Below are positions 46,963-64,000 of a DNA stretch of 64,000 nt, in pieces; the first letter of the stretch is position 1; each line of letters opens with the position of its first letter. The translations under genes and the position numbers were made by a program. Below the pieces are notes generated by a model. It was given only the letters and a program-made list of their open reading frames with translations. It did not search any database and was not told the DNA's origin. The DNA comes from Phyllosticta citribraziliensis. Taxonomy: Eukaryota. The DNA lies in assembly GCF_038025025.1 (NCBI RefSeq), contig NW_027117346.1, positions 1,054,001 to 1,118,000 on the forward strand, written 5' to 3'.

Positions 46963-49900
46963 TCAGACCATCACCTGAATCGCGCACAGTGGATTTGCGT
47001 GATGTCCAGGGAATGGCCCCTCGGTAATATCCACGCCCAGCTCTACCTTCATTCCGGGCATTACTCCCAAAGGCAGCACAATGTCGGCTTCGAGCTGCTG
47101 GACCGCGTGTGGTTCCAGCGTGATCAATTTCGCCCAGTGCAGCAGCTCCTTGCGAATTTCGCTTTTGATCATCTCCAGCGGGTCAACGCCGTCATCATGC
47201 CACACGTTGACCTCGGGAAAGAGCTGAAATTCGTAGTTTGTCGCACTCGTATTCTTCAACGTCACGCTCAGCTGGACGCGCTTCCCGCGGCCCACGCAGT
47301 AGAGTGGCACCGCGGAAAAGGTGGCCTGGAGGTGCCGGCCGTGTGCATCCAGGACCAAATGATATTCATCTCCAGCGGGCAGGGCTAAGCGCTCGGAGCC
47401 GGGTATCGAAAACTGGATGTCCAGAATGCCCATGACAGCTCCAACGTCTTGAGGTGTTAGACTAAGAGCCTGGCAATTCACTTGGCCGGCACGGCCGGCA
47501 CGGTCGCGCCAGTTGCAGTGAAGACACTCGAGAAGCTTTTGTCGGTACCAAAAGCACATCTTGTCTTCGCGCGAAATCTGTTGGACATCGGTGAGGACAA
47601 ACTGGCGATCTTGAGCCGCTGGGATCGCTTCGTTCGCGTAATCCAAGAAAATCCGAGGAAGCAAGACTGCCATACTGCTAGTCTGGCCAGGCTCAAGAAA
47701 GTCAGAACGAGCAGTGAGTTCAAGGGCTTGATTCTCGGCCGAGGCACCATCGCTGTACCAGGCGTCGACCGAAAGCTCCCGGTCGGAAGCGTTGGTGTAA
47801 TCGAATAGAAGCACGAAGTGGCTGTCGAGGTCCGCACTTGGATATTTTGCCCCGATGATCTCGCTTGCTGCCTTGCCTGGAAGAATCGAAAAGTTCGATG
47901 TCGTGATGGAAGGCTGCACGGTGACGGAGATATCTTGTGACGCTCTACTTGTAATGTAGAATCGCTCAATTTCTGGGGGTGGATTGGTCGCGGCATACTC
48001 GACGCTTATCGTGCCTTTGGTGAGACCTTGTACACCGTACACGTCGACTGAAAAGGCCATTATGCCGTTCGGCACAAGCTCAGCGGATGGGCGAAAGTCT
48101 TGCGACTTCCACTCAGCCTGGGCAATGTCCAGTCCAAGCTCGTATATTTTCGAAGGAACATTGCTTGCTCTCCTCAGTCCTTTCAAAGCGTCGGCAATGT
48201 CATTACGTGAATGAAATTGCAGCACATGAGCAAGACAGGATGGGTCCTTTTCGCTATGAGCGAGCGTGGCCTCGAATTTCTTCGTCTCTCCCTCTAAAAG
48301 AGCCAGCGTGTTTTGGACCAGGTCGGTCTTCATGAGCAGTGTTGGCTGTCTTGGAACGACCGAAACAGATGGCATGAGCGGCTCACCGCTGGGCTGCAGC
48401 TTCACTGTGGAGGCAGTCCCAGGGCGAGAGGATTCATCTGACTTGGGATACTTTACAGCATCATGGCCTGTTTGTTTCATCTTTTCGAGCTCTTCCGGTG
48501 CGACGCCACTGACTGATACCTCAAAGTCATGCTCGCGGCAGTCTTCCAGCTTGATCCGCACTCTTGTCAGATTGTGTATGTCTGAAATGTCGGCAACCAC
48601 TGGAACTCTCAAAGGCTGAACGGCTGATCCCGGGACGTCGTATTTGAGGTTTGGCAGGCAGTATATTTCGACCCCCCTGTCTGACACAAGCTTGATCGAA
48701 TTGACGGTCAGAGAGAAAGCAAAAGGGTTGCGGAGGGTAATGATGAATTCAGCAGGCTCCCCAGCAACGAGCGGCACGATTACTGCACCCTTCGACTGGT
48801 TCCCAAAGGCTTGATGTTCGAATCTGGCGCTGCCCCTCTGATTTGGATCATCTCCGTCTAGGTTCTTGCGCAAGTGAAGATCTCGCTCTGCGCGCTCGTG
48901 GTCGTACTTGACGCTGTGGACGAGATGGTCGTACCAAAAGATGGCTTCAAGCTCTGAAAGATCCTCTCCCATGGTCTTTGCGAAGCCCAGAGTGCGCCTG
49001 ATGTTCTCTCGGAGGCGCTGCTGGTCGTCTCTCGGCAGAATACATCGAAATCCAGGATCGTTCTCTTCTAGAGGCTCCTGGGGAGCTGTAATGTAGAGAA
49101 ATGCAGACGAGAAGTCGACGACACCTTTCAAGTCTCCCATGGCTTCGCAAACTTTGATGCATCGTCGCAGAACTTCGGCCTTCAACACCAAGCTTCCATA
49201 GGTACGGAATTCATCTTGCCTCTTGATGTGAGGGTCTATTCTCCTTCGCGGAGGAACGCCGTAGTCGCGGATAAATTGTTCAAGGAAGATGAACACCGTT
49301 TCGCCATGCTTCTTGTCGCCAGGAGGGACGATTCCTCCAGAGAGCATACCAGCTGCAGGATGGATACCCAACTCTGCAGCACCGAGCTTACGAGCTTGAA
49401 GCAGTGCAGGAACCAAGATGTCCATGAGAAGGGTGACGACAAAAGCCCTCTTTCTGGATAGTCCCAGCCTGGCCAGGCAGCCCGCAGCTTCAGAATAAAC
49501 AGTTGCGCGCTCGGCATCTGTCACTGCATTCGACTGGTTGACCTCTTCGATGGCCTCCGACAGGATGTTTGAAATGTGCACAACCTTTTCTGAACTTCCT
49601 TTAAGGGGACGCAGCGAACTGCTGTCTTCGCTCCCTTCCAGTAGAGACATGAAATCTTCTGATGTTGGCACTTCTGTCTTGCCTATTCTTTCAATCGTTG
49701 TCAAGAGTTTTGCGGTGCGGATTTTATTCTCCGAGTCGATAAGGGCTAGCAACTGTGCTGAGTCGGCTTTGAAAGACAACTTGTAAAAGCTTGTAACGCG
49801 CGACGTAAGATCTGGCGTCCACTCAATGATGCTTGATATGTTGCCTGCCACAGCCACCCCCTTTGTGCTTGGTGTGCAAGACGTGGGTATCTGTTCGAAT

Positions 49901-51196
49901 ATAGCGTCAGATGATTTCTGGCCAAATTGGCGAAGTGTTTGCCATACCTCAAATTCTTGGCCCTGTCCGATGAGGACTAGACTACAGATGACCATTTGCT
50001 CCAGCGTCTTCGCCATGACTAGATGATCATTGATTGACTCGGCTCTGAGATGGACCTCGTGCGACCTTTTTAATGCTTCGAGAACGTGCCCTGCCATCAG
50101 GCAGACTTGAGCATCAACCATGTCATGGCGGCATGCGTTGCTCAGCCGAGCTCTTTCCTCCATGCTTCCAGACCCAAAACCTTGAATGGAGAATCGCTGT
50201 AACGCGCGAGGCCTGGAAATGGACTCCATTGTTGGAGTGGTCTCTCCAGATCTTCCACCGGAGGGCTCTTCAGCTGGCGAAAGTCCTTCCGGTGGACTAG
50301 GTCGTTGCGTTTCATTTGGCAAAGTCAAGCGCAGCGGCACCGGGGACGCGCGGTTTACCGAGTCCCTGTTCAGCTGTGCCGGAGAGACTGAACGAGAGCC
50401 CGGACTGTCGGGAGTACCAATACCAAAGGATGATTGACGCCGAACAAGCGAGAAAGGAGATTTGGGTGGTTGCTGAGGGACGTTGGCGCTGGAGATGGTA
50501 ATCTCTGGTAGTGCTTGAAGGGATTTTGCGAGTGTTGTCATTTCGGCGAGAAGTAGCGAAGACAAGTCGCACATGACCGTCTTCATTGTTGTTTTCTTCG
50601 ATTCCGAGAGCGGAGGAACCAAGATTGTCTCCTCGGGGCACCAAGATGGCAAGGAAGGGAGCACGCTATCAAACAAAAGAAGACTGTGCACCAGTGCTCT
50701 TGAGTACTGCTCTCGAAGGACATCGACGGCTTCATTCAATTCCTCTCTTTTCAATGCCACGTTGGTGCTGTCTACCACAGCGCCTGACGAGCCTTCCTTC
50801 TCCAGGGTTTGATATTCTTGACCGTCAGCAATACCTAGAATCATGAGCGGCTCCCTGTACAGCTCAAAAGGAGACAGAGCAAGATAAGAAGGTGGAGGCA
50901 TAGACGCTGTGAAATGATAGAGAAGCATGCCATGTGGATTGCGTAGCGGAGAGAAGGTTGCTTTTGGTCGCACCATTAGTATCGTCATCTTGCAATACAT
51001 GTTTCTTTCTGAGTGGCAGGGACGGCCTACTTCTATCCGGCCGCGGGTCCGGGCTTATGTCTCCCAGGCGTATGGCATGCTCCGGTTGTAGACGTTCAAC
51101 AAAAGAGGTAAATCTTGAGCGCTTGATCTTGCCCGCAGGCACCACCAAGACCCTGATGCGGGCCGGGGCGATGGGAGAGAATGGATCAACGGCCAT
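46963..51196 (-). CDS. TRS120: TRAPPII complex subunit Trs120 (TRAPPC9)
   Basis: MAVDPFSPIAPARIRVLVVPAG...RLGDISPD | intron 50961-51030 | TFSPL...LSPFELYREPLMILGIADG, MKTVMCD, LGLSRKRAF, GAAELGIHPAAG, LVAGEPAEFIITLRNPFAF. Probable in-frame intron 49891-49947. Confidence 0.9.
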
Positions 51197-52033
51197 GGTG
51201 ACATCTGGTATGTGTCGTGACGCTCAAGCAGGGACAATGAGAGGAACAGTCCGGTGGTAGGTCGGGCCGGTCACGGGTGGGCGAGATACATGAGAGCGAA
51301 TGTGCTCTGACAGATCGCTTGGCTCTCCAGCATAGGCGAAATCGGGAGGATGCAGGGTAGAGGCCAAAGGGGTAGAGTTTGATGCGATGAGAGCCCCCTG
51401 CTGCTGTAGGATCCAGTAGCGCCACGGGGCATCCAGAGGCGGTGAGGTGGCGGAAGTTCGTTGACGCGGCGGGTTTCGGGGGTTTGCGGGCCGACAGACA
51501 CGCGGGCGGGCAAGGAACAGCCAGGAAGGATCCCAGGCACCCAGGCACCCAGGTAGCCTATGGGTCGCGGTTTGGAGCCAAAAGTCGTGGCGTAAACAAC
51601 CGCGCCCGCGTGCCACTCGCATGGGCCACGACCTTTGGAGATCGACTTGAGACATGACTCGCTGCGCTTTGCACTCGACGTCCGGCCATCAACACTCACC
51701 CAACAACACCCCTCTCCTCCATCCCTTCTACCGCACCTGATCAGTCCATCTTTGGCTCCTTATATCTTCCGTGCCATCCGCCGCCCTAAGTCTCCTTTCG
51801 TCGTTGAAACTCATCCGCTCATCAATCTTCTTCAACGACCTGGCCTTTGCTTCCCTCGGACGCATACATTATCGGATGCGCGCTGTCATTCAGTACCTTG
51901 TACATACGCAGCTTCTTGGACCGATTCACCTTGGACGCCACTGGGCGCTTGCCATCTCTCTTGGGGGGAAATCTTGCTCCGGCCTCGCGCCATCGCCACC
52001 ACTTTTGCCCGTTGACTCTGAAAAGTCGCCACC

Positions 52034-55000
52034 ATGGCCGGTGTCAACTATGCTCGCATGCGCGAGCTGACTTTGCAGGAAGGTCAAGATGATACCGTCA
52101 CGGTCAACACACGTGCCTTGATCGACAAAGTCCTCGCCCGCTACTCTGCCGAATTCACGACACTCAGGGAACTCGTGCAAAATGCCGCGGACGCTGGCGC
52201 GTCCAAGGTGACTATCAAGTTCGAAACAGATCCATCAACAAAGGTGCCTTTCCCAAGCGATCAGGAGCCGGGCACAGTCCTACGCCACGTGATTAAGCAT
52301 CACAACTTGAGGAGCATGGATGTGTCCAACAACGGCAAGCCCTTTACTGATCCGGACTGGGCCCGCTTGCGATGCATTGCCGAAGGAAATCCTGACGAGA
52401 CCAAGGTCGGGGCATTCGGTGTAGGGTTTTACTCTGTTTTCAGCGAGTGCGATGAGCCTTTTGTCATTTCGGGCAACAAGACCATGGCATTCTTCTGGAA
52501 AGGAAACACGCTGGCCGTGCGTTCATCATCTCTGCCTGCTGATCAAGCCTCTTCCTCTACTCGTTTCATACTGGACTACCGCAAATCATCCGAGAAGGAA
52601 GGGGAATTTACTCCATCGGGAATACCTGACCTTTTCGAACTCTCCAAATTTTTGACGACGAGTCTTACCTTCCTTGCTCTTGAATCAATAGAGCTTCATG
52701 TTGATAGCTTCAAGATATTAGAGCTCACCAAAACCATTTCCACAGCTGTTGCTGCGGCTATCCCGTCTCATATTACAACGACCTCTCAGAACGGCATTAT
52801 GAAGATCCGCCAGGTCACGCATCAAACGGCAAACATTCGAGCAGACTGGAGCAACGCCGTTGCATGGGATAAGAGCGAGCCAACTCAAGAGACTGCTGTG
52901 CAAGAACCGCCACCCAGCATTCCTTCGATCAAAGGCTTCTTCGCCAAGTTCAATATTGGTACAGCTAGCAAGAGGGAACAGGAACAACGGGCTGCAAGAG
53001 AGATTGCGGCCGCAAAGCAACGTGCGATTGCTGAAGACGTGGCCGGGCGGTCGCAGGCGACGATCTCCCTCAACATCAACTCCGTCAACATCGCAACAAA
53101 GGTTCCACCAACTCTCTCCCGGGAGCTCCTTCGTGCCACCAAGAAGCCTCCACCGCAGCAGACTTCGCTGTCGATCCTCACTACTCCCCACACCCACTTG
53201 GAACATTTACTGTCCAATGCCGAAGGACTTACCGTCGACCGTGCAGCAGACTTGTTCGCGTCTGCGTTACCCATGAAACACGGGCGCGTTTTCATCGGCT
53301 TTCCAACTGGACAAACCACCGGCTATCAGTGTCATATCTTTGCCCCATCGCTAATACCCACTGTCGAGCGCGAAAGTATCGACCTCTCAAACAGACATGT
53401 GTCGATCTGGAATGAGAGCATGCTGGAAATCGCGGGCATTGCATGCCGCATGGCGTTTGATAAAGGGATGAGTACAGTCAAGGAGAAAATGGACGAGGTG
53501 CTGAAAGCCGAGGGCGTCAAAAGGCCCACCGACGCCCATGTTACCAAAACAATCCCAGATACTGTCCACGTCCTAGCGCAATGGACTGCGAAAGAAGCAA
53601 CGCCCTCTGCCCTTGTCGGCAAGTGTGTCGAAGAAGGATTCTGGAAAGCGTCAAACAGGGCAGAAATTATGTCCACGCTCGGGGTCCTTCCTTGCCAGGA
53701 AGTGCGCGTGTCCGTCATGAAGCTCAACTTTTTGCGCGACCTCGCAATGATTCCAGAGGAGCTGATAGAACAGAGCTGGGCATTCATCGAAAAGCTCGCC
53801 AATCGCCGCATCATCCAGTATCTCACGGTTGAAGATATTGTCCAGAGATTGGAGAACAAGCCTCTGGACGAAGAAGAGATGCGGGAATTCCTCAAATTCA
53901 CGGCGCGCATGTCCAACTCGGAAGTCATCGATGCGAGCGACCTGAAAAAATTGTTCAATGCCGCAGTTTTGTCCACCGAACAGTCAATAATTGCACTCGG
54001 AAGCATCAGCTACTATCTCGTCCCCTCGAAGTATCCACCTGAGCTCCCGTATCCGATTACGGTAATGCCTCTTCGGTACACTAAAGATTTCAGCCGTGCA
54101 GAATTGGAAGGCTTTGGATGGAACGAACTCCCTGTCGAGGAGTGGGTTCGTTTCCTTCTTGACTTCAACCAACGGACGGGTCCTAAATCGATCACCAAAG
54201 ACTCTGAATTCGCCACCCAGGTTCTCAAAGTCATCTCAAAGCAGTGGGATCAGATGAGGACCAACCAGAGGAACGAGGTAATTGCGATGCTCCAACCACA
54301 TGCCGTCATGCCGACGAAGAACGGCATGCAAAAGCCTCAGCAAACCTATCACCCAAATGTCAAGCTTTTCGAGGATCTTCCCAACTTGATTGTCCCTGGC
54401 CTCAAACCAAGATTCCTCGAAGCTCTGGGTCTTCGCCAAACCATTGATCTCGATTATGTCTTCACTCGCCTATTGGCAGGACCAAATACATCGTCCTCAG
54501 ATTCCAAGCCGAGATGGAGCCATATGGATTTGATAGAATATTTGACCCAAGTGCGCGATTCAATTCCCCAAAAGGACCGCGCAACCCTGGCTGAGAAGCA
54601 AATCTGGCCTGTCGAGGACTATCCTGGCTTCCGGGGCGATGCCTCCAAACTTTATCAGCTCCAGAAGCTCCATGAGCCTGTCAAGGAGAATAAAGAATTG
54701 GGATTGCCCGTAATCAAATGGAAATCCAACGTGGAATATCGCTCTTTTGACCCAAAGGCAAGATTTCTCAAGGATCTGGGCATGCGTGGATTGCCCACTT
54801 GGATTGAACTCGTCGAGATGATGACTCAATCTGTGAAGGAAAAGGACGCTGCTCACTATGAAACTATCCTCAAGCACTTTGTGGCCAATCGTCAACAATG
54901 GCCGAGCTCGACTATTGAGGTCCTGGCCGAGAAGAGGATCTTGCCCGTGGAGAGCAAGCCCTTTCCGTTTCTTGTTCGGTCTATCGACTGTGTGACCAAC

Positions 55001-57268
55001 AACCAGGCCTCTATTTTCGGTTACAACATTCTCCGAAGAGATCTTCAGCCATTTTCCAGTCTACTAGGCGTTCGCCGTGATCCACCCGTCGAAGTTTGTG
55101 CGAATTACATCATCAACACTCCACCAGGGAATCAAATAGAAGCTGCAGTATTTTTCGGATACATGGCTGGAAGGGTTGCCGACATCCAGAGCTCACGTCT
55201 CGTTGCGCAGGAGCTCGGCAGCGCTCCCATTGTGCCTATGGAGAGTCCTGGCGCGAAGAAAGTTCGTTACATTGCACCTCAGTCGTGCTTCGTAGGCAAG
55301 AGCAAGGAATTTGGGAACATATTGAACTTTGTGGACTTTGGAAGCATTTCGAATGCGTTCCTTCGAACTGTCGGAGCCAAGGATCATCCGAGTATTTTGG
55401 AGCTTGCCCGCATGGTGATTGAGAATCCCTCCAGGGTTTTACAGGAGCTTCAAGCATCAAAATACTTGGACCTCCTGAGGCAATTTGCTGTTGACGAAAA
55501 GGAGCTCAGGTCTGACAAGGTCGTTTGGAATGCTTTCAGGTCGAAACCTGTACTTCTGGCGCTAAAGGATGAGGTACATGGGGCCAAGGCACCCGAGGAA
55601 AAGGAGAAGGATCTTCTCGGAGACGACAGCGACGACGATGACGAATCCGCAGCCCAACAGGTCATGGTCAGCGCTGCAGCATCCCAAATTGCCATTCGCG
55701 ACAACGTCCAGTACTACGCCGTCTTCAGAGGCTCGATTCTGATTGCGCCAGAGGACGATGTCATAGAGCAATTTTACATGCGGCTCGGGGCTGAAAAGCT
55801 AAGCGTCCGCGTACAGGTCGAGAAGATTGCCGGGAATCCAGTCCACGGTGGCGATCAACAAGCAGCGGCGCTGCAGAAGATGATTGTCGAACGCGTCCCC
55901 ATTTTCTTGACACAGTACGACAAGAACCAAATTCACCACGACGCTCGTTGGCTTGAGCGCAACTTGGAAGTCAAGGTGGTCTCGCACCTCACTCACAAGC
56001 TACAACTTCCAGGACATCGCCCTGTGTCGTTGAAGACGACTGCTGGTCTGCTCCGTCCAAAGTCTCGGTTCGGTTCGGTCACGACTTTATATGTGATGCC
56101 TCAATATGACTTTTACGAAGTCAGTCGGGAGCTGGTCCCCCTGCTCTTGGTCCGTCAAAATCCAAAGCATGAGGTATTGATTCTCGAAACCATCCTCAGC
56201 AATAGTCTGCGGAGGCTGCGCGACAAAGGGTACGATGTCCAGCGCATTCTCGCCCGGAAAGAGAAGCAAAAGGCTTTGATGGATGCTCGGCTTGCTGAGG
56301 AAGAAAAGCAACGTCTCGCACAAGCGCCAGTCGCTGAACCCCCTGCATCTCCGCCCGTCGCTCGGCAGCCCCCACAGATCGAGGCGGCAGCCAATCAGCC
56401 TCCACCAAATCCTCGTCCGGCTACACCTGAGCAGAACAAGATGCCAGGAGGATTCGAAACTCCAAGTCCCGAGCGTGAGAAGCACGAAAATGAAATCACC
56501 AATCCTCGCAGGCGGAGTAATGACTCAACAGCTTCAGGGCCAGCAGACAAGCTCTTATCAAATCTTCCATCAGGATGGTCCAAGACCATACGAGACGCTT
56601 TTAACCGAACCACGGCAGCCGGTGGCCAGCCGAGTAGCCAGGGCAACAATACCGATTCTCGTCCCGAACGTCGTCGCCAGAACCCCAACAGCCTTTCTTC
56701 CGACATTCAATCCAACCTCTCTGCAGCAATTGAAAAATGCCGTGCCCACAACTCTGATAGTGTCCAATCATCGGCCAAAACCAAGGAAATCGAAGAAGCA
56801 AAGGGCTCTTACTGTGACAGCAGTACAAGCACGGACCTCAGCAGATGGAACGTTACAGCGAACGGCATCACCGTCTTCTTGACCAACCGTCCGCACGACC
56901 CCATTCCCATCGCAGATGAAGCGTTCAAGTCTGGCATCGGAACGTTCGCCAACCTGCTGGAGCGCATCGGAGGACTCTTCCGTCTGAGCAACAGCGTCAT
57001 CAACATTTTCTACGAAGACGCCAGCAGCACCATTGCGTTCAATAAAGGCGGCTCGCTATTCTTCAACTATTTCTACTTCTTCAACCTGCACGCTCGGAAC
57101 GTTGGAGGAGGTGGCGCGGCTGATGCTACGTTGTATTGGTGGGAGGTGTTTTGCCACGAGATTGCGCACAACTTGAGTGCGGAGCACTCGGCGAAGCACG
57201 TCTATTATGAGGGAAGCTTCGTCAAGGCGACTTTCAGGAATGTGGCCAGCTTGATTGGCGAGTCTTGA
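52034..57268 (+). CDS. Large GHKL (HSP90/sacsin-like) ATPase-domain protein, DUF3684-like, with C-terminal HExxH motif
   Basis: Uninterrupted 1744-aa ORF. N-box LRELVQNAADA, G1 VSNNGKPF, G2 GAFGVGFYSVF. C-terminal TIAFNKGGSLFFN...YWWEVFCHEIAHNLSAEHSAKH. Confidence 0.88.
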   Translation: MAGVNYARMRELTLQEGQDDTVTVNTRALIDKVLARYSAEFTTLRELVQNAADAGASKVTIKFETDPSTKVPFPSDQEPGTVLRHVIKHHNLRSMDVSNNGKPFTDPDWARLRCIAEGNPDETKVGAFGVGFYSVFSECDEPFVISGNKTMAFFWKGNTLAVRSSSLPADQASSSTRFILDYRKSSEKEGEFTPSGIPDLFELSKFLTTSLTFLALESIELHVDSFKILELTKTISTAVAAAIPSHITTTSQNGIMKIRQVTHQTANIRADWSNAVAWDKSEPTQETAVQEPPPSIPSIKGFFAKFNIGTASKREQEQRAAREIAAAKQRAIAEDVAGRSQATISLNINSVNIATKVPPTLSRELLRATKKPPPQQTSLSILTTPHTHLEHLLSNAEGLTVDRAADLFASALPMKHGRVFIGFPTGQTTGYQCHIFAPSLIPTVERESIDLSNRHVSIWNESMLEIAGIACRMAFDKGMSTVKEKMDEVLKAEGVKRPTDAHVTKTIPDTVHVLAQWTAKEATPSALVGKCVEEGFWKASNRAEIMSTLGVLPCQEVRVSVMKLNFLRDLAMIPEELIEQSWAFIEKLANRRIIQYLTVEDIVQRLENKPLDEEEMREFLKFTARMSNSEVIDASDLKKLFNAAVLSTEQSIIALGSISYYLVPSKYPPELPYPITVMPLRYTKDFSRAELEGFGWNELPVEEWVRFLLDFNQRTGPKSITKDSEFATQVLKVISKQWDQMRTNQRNEVIAMLQPHAVMPTKNGMQKPQQTYHPNVKLFEDLPNLIVPGLKPRFLEALGLRQTIDLDYVFTRLLAGPNTSSSDSKPRWSHMDLIEYLTQVRDSIPQKDRATLAEKQIWPVEDYPGFRGDASKLYQLQKLHEPVKENKELGLPVIKWKSNVEYRSFDPKARFLKDLGMRGLPTWIELVEMMTQSVKEKDAAHYETILKHFVANRQQWPSSTIEVLAEKRILPVESKPFPFLVRSIDCVTNNQASIFGYNILRRDLQPFSSLLGVRRDPPVEVCANYIINTPPGNQIEAAVFFGYMAGRVADIQSSRLVAQELGSAPIVPMESPGAKKVRYIAPQSCFVGKSKEFGNILNFVDFGSISNAFLRTVGAKDHPSILELARMVIENPSRVLQELQASKYLDLLRQFAVDEKELRSDKVVWNAFRSKPVLLALKDEVHGAKAPEEKEKDLLGDDSDDDDESAAQQVMVSAAASQIAIRDNVQYYAVFRGSILIAPEDDVIEQFYMRLGAEKLSVRVQVEKIAGNPVHGGDQQAAALQKMIVERVPIFLTQYDKNQIHHDARWLERNLEVKVVSHLTHKLQLPGHRPVSLKTTAGLLRPKSRFGSVTTLYVMPQYDFYEVSRELVPLLLVRQNPKHEVLILETILSNSLRRLRDKGYDVQRILARKEKQKALMDARLAEEEKQRLAQAPVAEPPASPPVARQPPQIEAAANQPPPNPRPATPEQNKMPGGFETPSPEREKHENEITNPRRRSNDSTASGPADKLLSNLPSGWSKTIRDAFNRTTAAGGQPSSQGNNTDSRPERRRQNPNSLSSDIQSNLSAAIEKCRAHNSDSVQSSAKTKEIEEAKGSYCDSSTSTDLSRWNVTANGITVFLTNRPHDPIPIADEAFKSGIGTFANLLERIGGLFRLSNSVINIFYEDASSTIAFNKGGSLFFNYFYFFNLHARNVGGGGAADATLYWWEVFCHEIAHNLSAEHSAKHVYYEGSFVKATFRNVASLIGES

Positions 57269-57946: not shown

Positions 57947-58609
57947 GGCTGCAAGCTGATTGCTTGGTGAGAGAAAGCGCTGCAATCCTGAATTATATTC
58001 TGCAAGCCTTATCCTGACTGTTTGTTCTGGAAGGCTCATCATCGAATTGCGGTCACCACAGATCAAACACGCTGTCAAGGAACGTGCGTGCGAGCGTGCG
58101 TGGATGCAAAGATTTTCTCGTCGGCGACGCCAGGGGTGTGGAGCAAGATCTGCTTGCCATTCTGGGTTTAGCGCCTGCGAGGGGACGGGCCGGCGCCGCG
58201 ATGGGCAGGGTCTTGGTCGCCTCGTGGGTGACAACAAGCCAGAACAGACACCATTTTCTCGACCAAAATGGCTGCTCTGCACTTGTTTGTTGAACGATAT
58301 TTCGAGTGGTCTGGTCAAGTTTGCCACGCCTTGACGGCATTGCTGATCGCGTGGAGCCAAAACGCTTGTTGGTCTTTGCGAACCACGTCAACACGGGGCA
58401 GCACCCAACGGCATTGGTCTTTACCAGCTCTGTCAAGTTTTTCACCGACTGTGGGGCGAGATCTTTGATGGCGAATCAATACTCGTTGCACCAGAGGAAT
58501 GTTAAGGCCGCAGAGCCTCGTCACGTCCCCTTTCTGAATGTTCGCTCGCACCAACGCCCTCGCGAGCCTGTCGGATTCTGCCTCGATTATAGTGCGGACA
58601 TGATTCATC

Positions 58610-61600
58610 ATGCCTTCGAAAATCGATCGATCATTCGAGTCTATAGCGTCGCCGCTCGGACCCGATCATCTCGCGCAAGACCTTTTGGATCCCTCAGAAG
58701 TTGGTCGTATTCTATGGGATGAGGCAAAGAGCAAGGTCAAGAGCGAGGAGTTGAAGCAGCTTGATTCCAAGCAAGATGAGACCCCAGAAGCTGTAATCCA
58801 GGAACTTCAAGAAGCAAAGAAGCAAGTTGAGCCTTACCACCATGGGACATTCGACAGCATCATTGGGCGATTCAACATATTTTGTGACATGGCGAGCACC
58901 CCCATGAGTTTCGCCCCGCAGACGATTCAGATCGTTTGGACTGTCTTCGGATTGCTCATGAAGTTCGTCACGGCCTACAAAGAGCTTCGCGGAGTCATGA
59001 TCGATGCTGCAGATGCCATTTCGGACGCAATGTTTTTTTGCGGCATTTACATCAGCCAGTGCCGCCAGTGGACCACAACCCAAAACATCACAGAAAAAGT
59101 TCGCGGGAGAATTCTCAATGTCTATTGCGAAGTTCTCTGTCTTTCCACCCGAATCATGAAATGGGCCGTCAAAAGCGACCGCTATGGACGACTCGGTTTG
59201 ATGTGGAAAGTTGTCAAGGATTCTGTCGAGGCGGTATTCTGGAAGACAAGCGAGCTCAGCGCGATCGTGCAAAGTCTGAGAGCACAGCTTGAAGAGCTCC
59301 GTCAACTCAATGCAGAGAAGAGCCGCATGTTCGAGGAGAATGCTTTCAGAGCACTCGGAGAGAGAATGAAAGACAACACCGAAAAAATCTCTCAGCTGGC
59401 TAGCAATTTTGGCTTGGTAACGAAGCAGAATCAAGCATTTTTCAAGGAACTGGCCGAGAAACAAACGCACCTTCTGGACGTGTACAAGGAGACCGAAGAA
59501 TTGAGGAGTGAAGAGAGGGAAGAAGACAAGATCAACGAGGAGTACATGGCGAAACTAGAATGGCTGAAGGCTGGAACGACACTGGGAGCCTCACAACCAG
59601 ACGATCAACGACAAGAGAAAACAACAAACATGAGTTCAGGGACTTGCGAATGGATACTGGCCGAGGAAGATTTTGTTTCGTGGAAAAGAGGTGCGGGTAA
59701 CAGGATCATCTGGATCTTTGGAAAAGCAGGATCAGGCAAAACGTTTCTGTGCTCCTCGGTCATCACCCATCTGACGGAACAAACAACTCCAAACGACGCA
59801 GCGCCCATATTGACGTATTTCTTCTGCAAGATTGATGATTCTCGCAGATCCAAGGGTGAAAATATCATGCTCCACCTGCTCATGCAGCTGTTCGGAGCAC
59901 TGGGCAGCCTAGACAAAAAGTTCGCAGTCCCCATCCATTCTGGAGATCGCCGTGCCAAGACGAATATCATGCAAATTCTTGCAGAAGAAGCAAAGGACAA
60001 GAAACGGGCTGATGAACTTGGTCTTGCTGTTTGTGCGCGTATCTTTCAAAGGATAGCAAAAGAGTTTGACCGCAAGATTTTCATCGTCCTCGACGGCTTG
60101 GACGAGTGTACGGACCGACAGAACAGTGGAGTTTTCAATGCCCTGACCCAAAAGATTGGGCAGGAACCGAATGTTCAACTCCTGATAGCAAGCAGAGATG
60201 AAAACGACATAAGAGCAGCCTTCATGTCGGAACACACACCTATTCCCCCTTTCTACACCATCGAAGTCAGCGAAACCGCGACAAGAGAAGACATTGCCAG
60301 TTACGTGGCTCAAAGCCTCAACAGATATCGTCTGACAGATCCGGAGTGGGCGCATCGAGAAATTCTGGAACGTTCCGAAGGAATATTTCAGTGTGAGTCA
60401 AGTTCGGAGCTACCTCTGCGCAAAATTTTAATTCTCTACAGATGCTGCGATGGCACTTCGGATCCTTGAATCAGACCCCGTGACAATGAGTGGAAACCCT
60501 GCCGTGGCCATTAAAAGACTTCCCAAGGGATTGAACGAACTCTACGACCAGCGATTATCCCAAATGAATTCAGCATCAAGAAGAAGCCTCAAAATAATGC
60601 TTCGCTGGCTAGCATATGCAGAAGGATCTTCTGTCAAACTCATTCCAGTCATCGATGAGATCATCGAGCGCTATCGACATGAAGAAGACGAAATTCTCAC
60701 AGGACCGGATCTAGAAGATACAGAAGAAGACAAGAGGAAAACTGCGCGACATTTCTGGGAGATTTTATACCCTGAAGTCCGGGACTTCGTCAAGTACAAC
60801 GACGATAGAATTGTCATCGAAGCGCAGCATAAGTCCATTCTCGACTGGATCCGAACGCCTGTCCAAGATCCTTCGGTGTGCGGGAAATGTGGCCAGGGGC
60901 AGGCGGGTGAAGCACCTACTTGGGACGTTTCCCCCCCACGTGGACGATTCATTATGGCCCGTGGTGTCATGAAAACCCTTACACACCCCAGATTCCTAGA
61001 AAAGTATCTCAATTCGAACGATAAGAACCTGTCGCGAAGGTACGAGCTTGAATACTGGTGGCTCCTTATTCACGGCGCCGAAAGTGAAGCAAGTGGGGAA
61101 GACCGAGAAAGAGACGAATGGAAACGCCTTTATGAAGATATCGACAAATTTGTCTACGAAAAGAGCAACAGAATCTACTTTGAACATTGGCGAGCTCAGC
61201 GACAGAACCTCGGCTACCTCCCCTTTCCAGAACAGCCACTGTCTATTGCGGCAAAGATCGGGAGTCTGGGTTATTTCAAACGACACTTCGGGTTTGCCCT
61301 CGATTACGAGCAGAATGATGTTCTCAGTCAGAAGGACAGTCTAGGGCTTTCACCTTTACACTGGGCTTGCCGCTTGGGAAACATTGAGATTCTAAGATTC
61401 ATTCTCGATGAAGACCAATCTCATGTCAACGTTCAAGGCGGCGATGAGCACAGGACCCCTTTTCATTTGATGCTCAGCGAACGTCAGTATTTGAGAAAAG
61501 ACTCCATAACTGTTGAGCACGTCAGGCTCCTTTTCCGTAAGGGCGCACGCGCAGATATACAGGATTCGAGTGGTGACACTTCCCTCCACGCGGTTCTCGA

Positions 61601-63116
61601 ATCAGGAGACTTGGACATTTGCAAAGAGATCCTCCGGAATGGGGAAGTCGACATCAATGCCAAAAACAAGTGGGGTGAAACGCCAATTTTAAAGCTTGGC
61701 CGAGACGCGAAAGATCTCATGAACATAACTCGATTGCTGCTAGACGAGGGAGCCAGCCTGCAAGTTAAACGATGGGACAACCAAACCCTGCTCATCAAAG
61801 CTGTTTTTTGGAATAACCTCGAACTTGCCAATCTTGTTCTTAAGGAAGCACCCGAGATAGTGAACGTGACGGGGCGTTCCCAAGCGGAGACAGCACTACA
61901 TGCAGCCGCGTGCATGCTCAACAAGAGCATGGTGGAATTGCTGCTGGAGAAAAATGCGGACATCTCTCACAGAAACTCTAGTGGCTTGATACCTCTTCAG
62001 GTCGCTCTTGTGTCATATGCTACTTGGGCACGAAAAGATACTGGTACGGCCGATGCGCTCCATGTGTTCTTGAACAAGACTCCTCCCGGCGAAAACGACA
62101 TCGAAGTCCTGAACACCGCCATTGAGCATGATCTTCCCGAGGTCTGCAAACGTTTTGCACACCTCACCAATCACCTCGACAGACACGGCTGGCCTCCGCT
62201 GGTGCTTGCAAAACAAAGAGAAAGAGAACGTATCTACGAAATGCTGTTCAAGAACTCAGACACAAAATGTTTACAAAAGTCAAACCAAGCGAATTGCCTC
62301 CGGAGTCCTCAGTTCCCCAGTTCTTGGAACAGAGACAGTGCAAGAGGTCTTTTGTCTGTGGCTAATAATGGTGTGACTATTTCTGGGGCCCTAGGTAAGT
62401 CCAATGAAATACTCCAAGGCTATCCTCGAGCATACATCACTAAGATTGACAGATGGCAAAGGCGAAAACGGACCCAAGGCCGATCCAGTGGTCAGAGGAA
62501 ACCATCCCATACCCCCAGGACAGCGGTTCTATTTTGAAATCAAAATCGACGAGCTCTTTGGACAAAAATATCATAAAAGGTAAGCAGCACTTCCTCAGAT
62601 TGACGTGCCAGGTCAAAACAGAGATGCTAATCATGTTGCGAGGCAGAGAAATTGACATCGGGTACTGTTCGCAAACATCGATACTGCGAAGATCTCTCGA
62701 ATCAAGGCGAGACGGCGAACGTGTCCCATCCTGGGAGTATCCGTCTTACAGTGACAAAGCTTGCGCATTTCGCCACGGTTATCAGCGTTTAGAGGCGCTC
62801 AGCACCTATTTTACCTGCGGTGATGTTTTAGGGGCTGGGATCGACTGTGCTGCCAAGAAAAGCTGGTTCACGAGGAACGGGGAGCGCTTGGGTAAGCAAT
62901 TCTGGACTTCCAAAAGATCCATTCTAATGCAAAAGTTTTCAACATGCTAATCAAACAGATGCCACTTTCGAACGCAGTTGTATGAGAGGGAAGCTCTTTC
63001 CCATCATTCAGATGGTCAATGTTGGCGTCAAGATCACTGCAAACTTTGGGACGCCGGGATCGCCGCCGTTCAAGTACAAGTGGGAAGATTACCTTCAAAC
63101 CAAGGAGCAAGGCTAG
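58610..63116 (+). CDS. NLR-like protein: N-terminal helical domain - NACHT - ankyrin repeats - SPRY
   Basis: Exons 58610-60392, 60442-62394, 62453-62579, 62647-62891 and 62959-63116 join in frame. GTCEWIL, Walker A WIFGKAGSGKT, YFFC, Walker B FIVLDGLDEC, LLIASR. About 8-10 ankyrin repeats (GLSPLHWAC, GDTSLHAV, AETALHAAA). SPRY motifs VRGNHPIP..FYFEIKI, GDVLGAGID...FTRNGERLG, GKLFPII...ANFG..PFKY. Confidence 0.88.
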
Positions 63117-63520
63117 ATAGCAGAAGTCGTGGCATGCAGTACCCCTCGAAAGCTCCCTTTTTCCATCCGCCACAGAGCTTCAATGCTTCCAAATCCCTTG
63201 ATGATGAGGTGATTTGAACGGTCCCAATTGAGCCGATGAATCAGAATCTTGAATGTCCTCCGTTCACTTTTTTTTGGCTTGTGCGTGCCACCCTGGCTCG
63301 TATGCGGCAACTCCGAAGTGCAGTGCAGCATCTGTCTGGAACAAAGTCTTCCACAGTTCATGTCCCCTTGCAGCAACTTCAAGTGTAGCAAATAACGTGC
63401 TCGGCCATGCAAGATGTTTAGTATGGGCGGCGAAGAATGAAAAATAAAGTCCATTTTCTTGCTTGGAAATTGACTTGTGGGGTATCTTTTAGACTAAGAC
63501 GAACGACTTCCGCCGACAGC

Positions 63521-64000
63521 TTATCCAGAGGAAAATTTTCTTGCCAGCCAGTTGCTTCCATTCTCCATGTAGTCTTCCCTGGTCACGGCCAAGCTCTTCA
63601 ACAGGTCTGTGTTCTGCGCTAGCTTCACACCGCCAAGCCATGTATACGTGATGGGATCGTCTGGCCGTCTGATTCTCAAAGGCCACTCTCCAGGCATAAT
63701 GCTCCTCAACTCTGCCTCCAACTTCTCCATAAAGCCAGGTATCAGGGAGTTTCCACCGACAACTACGACGTTGGCTAACATAGCTGGCCAAAGCCCTTCT
63801 GGCAGTTGCTGGAGGCACTGAAGTATTGCCTCTGGGATGCCAGGTTCCTGGAGCCCAACATCCAGCGGATTGAACAGCAGCTCTGGGACCGCAAAGCGCT
63901 CATTTCCCAGTGGCAGAATGTCTTCCTTTGGCCCGCCCGACATTCCCAGTCGTTTTGCTTTTGCTGCTGCCGAGGGATCATGAGGGCGCGCATATCCACG
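63521..64000 (-). CDS. ARP6: Actin-related protein 6 (SWR1 complex), 3' part (5' end outside window)
   Basis: Frame is open from 64000: LGNERFAVPELLFNPLDVG, GIPEAI, ANVVVVGGNSLIPGF, DPITYTWLGG, VTREDYMENG; stop at 63521-63523. Confidence 0.88.
   Translation of the reverse strand, partial: RGYARPHDPSAAAKAKRLGMSGGPKEDILPLGNERFAVPELLFNPLDVGLQEPGIPEAILQCLQQLPEGLWPAMLANVVVVGGNSLIPGFMEKLEAELRSIMPGEWPLRIRRPDDPITYTWLGGVKLAQNTDLLKSLAVTREDYMENGSNWLARKFSSG

Follow-up and report, generated by a model that had tools for sequence, protein, structure and literature searches.

A transcribed NACHT-ankyrin gene with a spliced C-terminal SPRY domain in Phyllosticta citribraziliensis

The window analysed here is a stretch of 64,000 nucleotides (nt) from the fungus Phyllosticta citribraziliensis (NCBI RefSeq assembly GCF_038025025.1, contig NW_027117346.1, positions 1,054,001 to 1,118,000 of the forward strand), and all coordinates below count from its first letter. 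Close to its end lies one intact, transcribed five-exon gene (58610-63116, +), whose product combines a helical N-terminal domain, a NACHT domain, an array of ankyrin repeats (ANK), and a C-terminal SPRY domain. An earlier reading made from the letters alone, hereafter the original prediction, had described this locus as a spliced fungal NOD-like receptor (NLR) gene in which the SPRY domain is concealed by introns.

Gene structure and transcripts

In a stop-to-stop scan for open reading frames (ORFs), the gene appears as two long frames (58604-60469 and 60432-62537, +), and three short frames on the same strand, bearing SPRY-like words, follow the second of these. When the five exons are joined, they give 4266 nt, or 1421 codons plus a stop, without any internal stop. 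The borders of introns 1 to 4 read GTGAGT..CAG, GTAAGT..CAG, GTAAGC..CAG, and GTAAGC..CAG (49, 58, 67, and 67 nt), and branch sites are plausible in all four. Translation of the proposed coding sequence, the check that had been suggested, therefore agrees with the prediction that four canonical introns yield a single intact frame, and every SPRY motif quoted in its support (VRGNHPIP..FYFEI, IGYC, GDVLGAGID, FTRNG, KLFP, and ANFG..PFKY) is found in the joined translation. The start codon at 58610 aligns to residue 1 of P0002, a protein of P. capitalensis. Retention of intron 2 would stop the frame at 62537, with loss of the SPRY domain. A tblastn search of the 64-kb window with the joined protein returned the gene alone and no second copy.

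This structure is also evident in transcripts. X1 and X2, two public runs that come from different studies, supplied contigs that were aligned to 58300-63400; both runs were treated as cDNA because their contigs carry spliced GT..AG joints. The X1 contigs skip exactly all four introns, and the X2 contigs skip the three that they cover (introns 2, 3, and 4), so that all four junctions lie at the proposed borders (Table 1). The letters of contigs and window are otherwise identical, save one in X2. Record 1 of X1 is colinear with the window from ~58251, 49 nt before 58300, to 61895, and its only joint is intron 1. Record 2 of X1 (61885-63323) and record 6 of X2 (62234-63237) each extend from the ankyrin exon across exons 3-5 and reach the 3' untranslated region (UTR). 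Because single contigs span these parts, the SPRY exons and the 3' UTR are in physical continuity with the ankyrin exon; rather than terminating or being spliced differently before 62453, the contigs run on through exons 3-5. The two X1 records overlap by 11 nt only, and the full-length transcript is thus pieced together from two contigs.

The leader is at least 359 nt long (58251-58609, +) and contains five upstream ATGs; the frames opened by two of these overlap the main start codon and end at 58722. These ATGs could exert translational control through upstream ORFs. Two other layouts of the locus were ruled out. An upstream coding exon is incompatible with a contig that is colinear from ~58251 and with the in-frame TGA at 58601, and a separate downstream gene for the SPRY exons is incompatible with the lack of a start codon context and with the contigs that join these exons to exon 2.

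Table 1. Coordinates of the gene, its parts, and the neighbouring features in the window
Feature	Position	Strand	Evidence or remark
5' leader, minimal; contig colinear from ~58251	58251..58609	+	5 upstream ATGs, in-frame TGA 58601-58603
Exon 1: start codon, DUF7708/likely Goodbye-like helical domain, NACHT; aa 1-594 plus 1 nt	58610..60392	+	
N-terminal helical domain, aa 35-333: divergent DUF7708 (likely Goodbye-like group) plus coiled-coil linker	58712..59608	+	hhalign, phmmer
NACHT / NPHP3_N-type NTPase, aa 344-553	59639..60268	+	PF24883, PF05729 matches
Walker A GKAGSGKT, aa 371-378	59720-59743	+	motif intact
Walker B FIVLDGLDE, aa 491-499	60080-60106	+	motif intact
Intron 1, 49 nt, GT..AG, phase 1	60393..60441	+	skipped in X1 contig
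Exon 2: post-NACHT helical region, ankyrin repeats; aa 595-1246	60442..62394	+	
Ankyrin array, about aa 896-1200, approximate borders	61344..62258	+	Ank_2, Ank
Intron 2, 58 nt, GT..AG	62395..62452	+	skipped in X1, X2 contigs
Exon 3: first SPRY strands (VRGNHPIP..FYFEIKI)	62453..62579	+	
SPRY domain, aa 1256-1412, split by introns 3 and 4	62482..63086	+	profile match 76.1 bits
Intron 3, 67 nt, GT..AG	62580..62646	+	skipped in X1, X2 contigs
Exon 4: SPRY core (IGYC .. GDVLGAGID .. FTRNGERL)	62647..62891	+	
Intron 4, 67 nt, GT..AG	62892..62958	+	skipped in X1, X2 contigs
Exon 5: last SPRY strands (KLFP .. ANFG .. PFKY), TAG stop 63114-63116	62959..63116	+	
3' UTR, minimal, under transcript contigs	63117..63323	+	X1 to 63323, X2 to 63237
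TRAPPC9/Trs120	46963-51054	-	E 2e-179
DUF3684 plus sacsin-domain protein	52022-57268	+	1120 bits
tRNA-Leu, anticodon TAG; ~660 nt upstream of NLR start codon	57857-57946	-	ARAGORN
Actin-family (actin-related) gene, convergent with NLR	63521-64000	-	

Domains of the encoded protein

The SPRY domain becomes visible only after splicing, because exon 4 taken singly reaches just 16 bits (E 0.013) in Pfam SPRY (PF00622), whose cut-off is 26.3, and neither exon 3 nor exon 5 has a Pfam match of its own. These single-exon scores bear out the claim that a plain ORF scan conceals it. In hmmsearch on the joined protein, a SPRY-tail profile built only from four non-Phyllosticta proteins with Pfam SPRY (P0027, P0028, P0036, and P0040) covers amino acids (aa) 1256-1412 with 76.1 bits (E 1.4e-20, Z=100000), and both junctions within exons 3-5 fall inside the aligned stretch. 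A true C-terminal SPRY behind the ankyrin array is thereby confirmed. In blastp, the tail matches the Phyllosticta protein P0001 (1.5e-56), P. capitalensis proteins (about 1e-29 to 2e-32), P0036 (4.8e-17), and P0027 (3.7e-11). Pfam SPRY lies above its cut-off in P0001, in P0002 (56.6 bits, profile positions 1-119 of 121), in P0027 (64.2 bits), and in P0036 (71.0 bits).

Among solved structures, the tail of P0002 is closest to the SPRY domains of RanBP10 and RanBP9 (E 4e-10 to 6e-10), with a match of about 145 residues that includes the GDV(I/V)G..(D/N) and NFG..PF motifs, and to the nematode secreted protein SPRYSEC-15 (4.6e-10); weaker matches are DDX1 (5e-5) and Vid30/Gid1 (3e-4), and no TRIM B30.2 is among these nearest structures. 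Exon 4 of the window alone has 0 matches to PDB sequences at E<=1, and PRY (PF13765) has no match in P0001 or P0002 at E<=10. Because RanBP9/10 is nearest and PRY is unmatched, the tail is read as a RanBP-type SPRY rather than a B30.2 domain. The original prediction had pointed to SPRY as a module of animal innate immunity; the fold stands, and identity with the B30.2 module of TRIMs, pyrin, and fish NLRs does not. A SPRY-region search among shorter proteins gave 2 matches only, the word-index search being too insensitive for tracing the origin of the domain.

The NACHT part is recognised in exon 1 by two Pfam families: NPHP3_N (PF24883; aa 344-529, E 2.4e-32, 112.9 bits, cut-off 24.8) and NACHT (PF05729; E 3.6e-10, 40.4 bits, cut-off 26.7). 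The NPHP3_N match is compatible with the T-NACHT (TLP1-like) subtype, which is defined by a winged-helix (HETHS) consensus instead. In exon 2, the ankyrin array is matched by Ank_2 (E 9.6e-31, 106.6 bits, 5 stretches) and Ank (E 2.2e-24, 84.6 bits). Together with the intact Walker A and B motifs and the joined contigs, these matches uphold the view of an NLR-type NACHT-ANK protein made from one spliced gene.

The N-terminus was assigned through its relatives. A direct hmmscan of the window N-terminus finds no match to DUF7708 (PF24809) at E<=10. Its residues 1-344, searched with phmmer against 1.84 billion representatives, match 12 proteins at E<=0.001, among them P0031 (E 7.6e-17), and the DUF7708 cut-off of 25 bits is passed by P0031 (27.3), P0033 (38.8), P0034 (33.3), and P0036 (31.2). 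Within an alignment of 14 members (A1), DUF7708 is found in nine at E<=0.1. When the window protein together with P0002, P0025, P0029, and P0030 was compared by hhalign with eight DUF7708-positive N-termini, residues 35-333 aligned over 273 columns with a probability of 99.8 % (E 3.6e-30). Profile comparison thus gives a solid basis for placing the N-terminus in DUF7708. A tie of this domain to the Goodbye-like/NAD1 group is likely and draws on weak co-matches in A1, namely Goodbye in 4 of the 14 members (best E 0.039) and NACHT_N (PF17100) in 2 (best E 0.0019). The term DUF7708 was found in no paper of the literature searched. As PMC9815663 describes them, Goodbye-like domains have the four-helix-bundle core of HeLo and MLKL and, in addition, an N-terminal extension.

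Structural comparison used an AlphaFold2 (AF2) model of the N-terminus. Foldseek against the PDB gave 0 matches at E<=0.001, and the best match in a wide VIA-align search was to designed helical bundles (Z 10.5); the coiled-coil domain of a plant resistosome (9h2l) scored Z 7.1, within the noise band for helical models. The fold matches were generic helical bundles throughout. The N-terminus had been described as helical, with no recognisable enzymatic effector motif. Both points were confirmed, but the description needs correcting in light of the hhalign result and the relatives found by phmmer, since DUF7708, with its likely tie to the Goodbye-like group, belongs to the standard N-terminal modules of fungal NLRs.

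Relatives and their deposited models

The closest proteins are Phyllosticta models, with identities over exon 1 of 76 % for P0001 and 42 % for P0002. Over longer alignments, P0001 (P. citrichinensis, 1202 aa) is 68 % identical over 1167 columns, and P0002 (P. capitalensis, 1409 aa) aligns from end to end with 42.6 % identity over 1373 columns. P0001 and the P. capitalensis proteins P0002, P0025, and P0048 (about 1410 aa) resemble the window protein in collinearity, in the four domains, and in Pfam SPRY; at ~43 % identity, the P. capitalensis proteins are paralogue-level relatives. Identity to P0001 differs by part: 72 % in the N-terminus, 78 % in the NACHT, 76 % in the middle, 61 % in the ANK array, 57 % in the linker, and 53 % in the SPRY domain, a gradient that fits a faster-evolving sensor end.

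Two P. capitalensis proteins, P0002 and P0025, form a mosaic when compared with each other (N-terminus 38 %, NACHT 62 %, middle 86 %, ANK 90 %, SPRY 93 %). Paralogues may have swapped domains or undergone gene conversion here, or the two may be very old alleles.

The whole four-part layout is kept in other Pezizomycotina. P0036 (Cirrosporium novae-zelandiae, Xylobotryomycetes) has DUF7708 above the cut-off, NACHT, ANK, and SPRY, and P0027 (Bathelium mastoideum, Trypetheliales) has a related N-terminus, for which DUF7708 is unlisted but which aligns with the family, followed by NACHT, ANK, and SPRY. P0028 (Geoglossum umbratile) has the same NACHT-ANK-SPRY back end behind a different N-terminal domain. 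Together, the window gene and the Bathelium, Cirrosporium, and Geoglossum proteins suggest an early origin and a wide spread of the ANK-SPRY back end in Pezizomycotina. In Sordariales, the survey of PMC12258605 (PLoS Genet 2025) reports 46 NLRs with SPRY, and in every one of them the domain is C-terminal and accompanied by ankyrin repeats. By our own count of its table S3, 33 of the 46 are NAD1/Goodbye - T-NACHT - Ank - SPRY, 10 are sesB(/DUF676) - T-NACHT - Ank - SPRY, and 3 have no N-terminal annotation. The word SPRY is missing from the earlier catalogue PMC4986451 and from the main text of another, PMC9815663.

Deposited models of one paralogue mostly lack the tail. The 90 % cluster of this paralogue, P0029, lists 8 models, from P. 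citricarpa, P. citriasiana, and P. paracitricarpa. Five models of 1300 aa and one of 1295 aa end in short, unrelated tails that set in directly behind a conserved '...TVSGSG', located before the intron-2 position. In P0047 (1310 aa), an exon-3-like 'DHPVPARQKFYFEIRIEEL' continues and is followed by a stop, and P0044 (1068 aa) ends earlier, inside the ankyrin region. P0043 (1423 aa) is the sole model of the cluster with SPRY, a partial match of 47.1 bits. Judged from these protein tails, the loss of SPRY looks like systematic mis-annotation by read-through into the small introns; on this reading, 6 of the 8 models stop inside the first small intron and one in the next. SPRY tails would then be undercounted in surveys built on deposited proteins.

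The P0001 model begins at the equivalent of residue 240 of the window protein and has an extra ~25-29 aa exactly at intron 3; it is probably truncated at its N-terminus and probably contains a retained or misplaced intron. Its UniRef name, 'Protein SSH4', is misleading, the protein being an NLR.

Proposed function and known counterparts

The explanation that we favour is that the protein is an NLR, a signal transduction ATPase with numerous domains (STAND), built from a DUF7708/likely Goodbye-like domain, a NACHT of NPHP3_N and putatively TLP1 type, ankyrin repeats, and a RanBP9/10-type SPRY, and that it is a member of the Goodbye-like - NACHT - ANK - SPRY class. Taken as a whole, with gene structure, class, and mechanism together, this explanation is very probable. 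By analogy with NLRs in general, the protein would be a sensor. The ANK and SPRY unit would hold it off and bind a ligand or a guarded protein; binding of the trigger would release the NACHT for nucleotide-dependent oligomerisation, and oligomerisation would cluster the N-terminal helical bundles, which would serve as the output module, possibly a membrane-directed cell-death module related to MLKL and HeLo. The original prediction had supposed that signalling may need a partner in trans. Because the DUF7708/likely Goodbye-like module is present, a separate effector partner would be unnecessary, and this supposition is not supported: the N-terminus is a standard fungal NLR module, and the flanking genes in the window, all of housekeeping type, include no candidate signalling partner. 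As an identical order of ANK and SPRY recurs in distant classes, the SPRY domain most probably serves as a constitutive second sensor surface and not as a decoy of recent date.

Several points weigh against the sensor NLR. On the transcript side, the label 'RNA?' of both runs is a guess, and contigs are blind to minor isoforms such as retention of intron 2. In the N-terminus, the best Pfam match of the window protein itself is Goodbye (PF17109) at E 0.099 and 13.5 bits, below the cut-off of 24.8. The AF2 model made with a 14-row alignment is all-helical with a moderate predicted local distance difference test (pLDDT) score of 65.5 (the model from the single N-terminal sequence, at 42.3, was of no use), and the cell-death activity of Goodbye-like domains is explicitly called unproven where PMC9815663 describes them. 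The ANK array contains no near-identical internal repeats at the DNA level and so lacks the repeat shuffling that marks fast-evolving fungal NLRs; a tandem-repeat search across the gene turned up nothing but an 8-nt repeat in 2 copies. Additionally, the faster divergence of the C-terminus could stem from relaxed constraint instead of selection towards new specificities.

Other explanations assign the C-terminal half a different role. The SPRY tail might be an integrated decoy, copied from a RanBP9/Gid1(Vid30)/Ssh4-type protein that an antagonist's effector targets, in which case sensing would consist of the effector binding or modifying the SPRY domain. Such an origin would suit the nearest solved SPRY domains (RanBP10/RanBP9, Vid30/Gid1, and the secreted SPRYSEC-15), the name given to P0001 in UniRef, and the position of SPRY as the most divergent part relative to that protein, and PMC12258605 raises the possibility that non-canonical domains of NLRs act as decoys. 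However, in its treatment of SPRY the same paper favours an additional canonical sensor, the domain being frequent there and constant in its position and its association with ANK. Moreover, the fusion is old and common to several classes, unlike lineage-specific decoys, and identity to RanBP9/10 is low. We consider a decoy unlikely. A bolder version makes the SPRY tail, not the ankyrin array, the specificity-determining bait: a RanBP9/Gid1-type mimic of the CTLH/GID scaffold that would fire when an antagonist's effector grabs this scaffold. With it goes the expectation that SPRY-tailed NLRs are far commoner in Pezizomycotina than catalogued, because gene callers routinely drop three tiny exons. 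This combination is quite unlikely.

The protein might also be a housekeeping STAND scaffold with no immune or non-self role, whose ANK and SPRY parts bring in the cell's own substrates, for instance for a ubiquitin-ligase pathway, the role that SPRY has in RanBP9/Gid1 and Ssh4. Most Sordariales rows of table S3 in PMC12258605 list about one Goodbye-NACHT-Ank-SPRY copy per genome, the neighbours of the gene are TRAPPC9, DUF3684/sacsin-like, and actin-related genes, hypervariable internal repeats were not found, and the contigs of two studies reflect expression under ordinary conditions, all of which would be expected of a scaffold. It accords poorly with the several deeply diverged paralogues in Phyllosticta (about 40 % identity; the P0002, P0029, and P0031 clades), with the P0002/P0025 mosaic, which better suits NLR-style turnover, and with an N-terminal domain type known from fungal NLRs only. 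A scaffold is therefore very unlikely, and the NLR with a second sensor surface remains the favoured explanation.

Known systems resemble this protein in different parts. Teleost NLR-B30.2 (NLR-C) proteins, and TRIM/pyrin, are discussed in PMC12258605 for a SPRY fold placed behind the repeats of NACHT receptors as a recognition module. The teleost proteins have PRY and SPRY after leucine-rich repeats, whereas the window clade has ankyrin repeats and a RanBP-type SPRY without a PRY match; the resemblance is most likely one of functional analogy, reached by an independent fusion. RanBP9 and RanBP10 (PDB 5ji7 and 5jia) and yeast Vid30/Gid1 have, by sequence, the same SPRY subtype as the tail of P0002. 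In those proteins, the domain sits in CTLH/GID ubiquitin-ligase scaffolds with LisH, CTLH, and CRA, whereas in the window protein it forms the end of a STAND ATPase. The sesB/DUF676 - T-NACHT - Ank - SPRY NLRs, and P0028 with them, share the NACHT-ANK-SPRY back end with the window protein and differ in a lipase/esterase-like N-terminus and an ANK array of far greater length (about 1900-2100 aa).

The closest counterpart is the Sordariales NAD1/Goodbye - T-NACHT - Ank - SPRY class, exemplified by podans-001_g9691 of Podospora anserina (Fig 7B and table S3 of PMC12258605), which has the same module order. As described there, the Goodbye-like domain extends to about aa 300, the NACHT lies at about 330-590, the ANK array at about 900-1450, and SPRY at the extreme C-terminus, and positions in the window protein are similar. 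By these published descriptions, the class is about 1600 aa long, compared with 1421 aa in the window, whose N-terminus also differs in passing no Pfam cut-off and which comes from a Dothideomycete (Phyllosticta) lineage. PMC12258605 puts SPRY forward as a further sensor domain and compares it with teleost NLR-B30.2. Both the architecture and the interpretation offered in the original prediction, SPRY as an extra sensor or integrated decoy, are accordingly already in print in that survey, and the window gene is probably another member from a different fungal class. It adds a transcript-supported, correctly spliced and likely Goodbye-like example of this NACHT - ANK - SPRY layout from a Dothideomycete lineage, beyond Sordariales.

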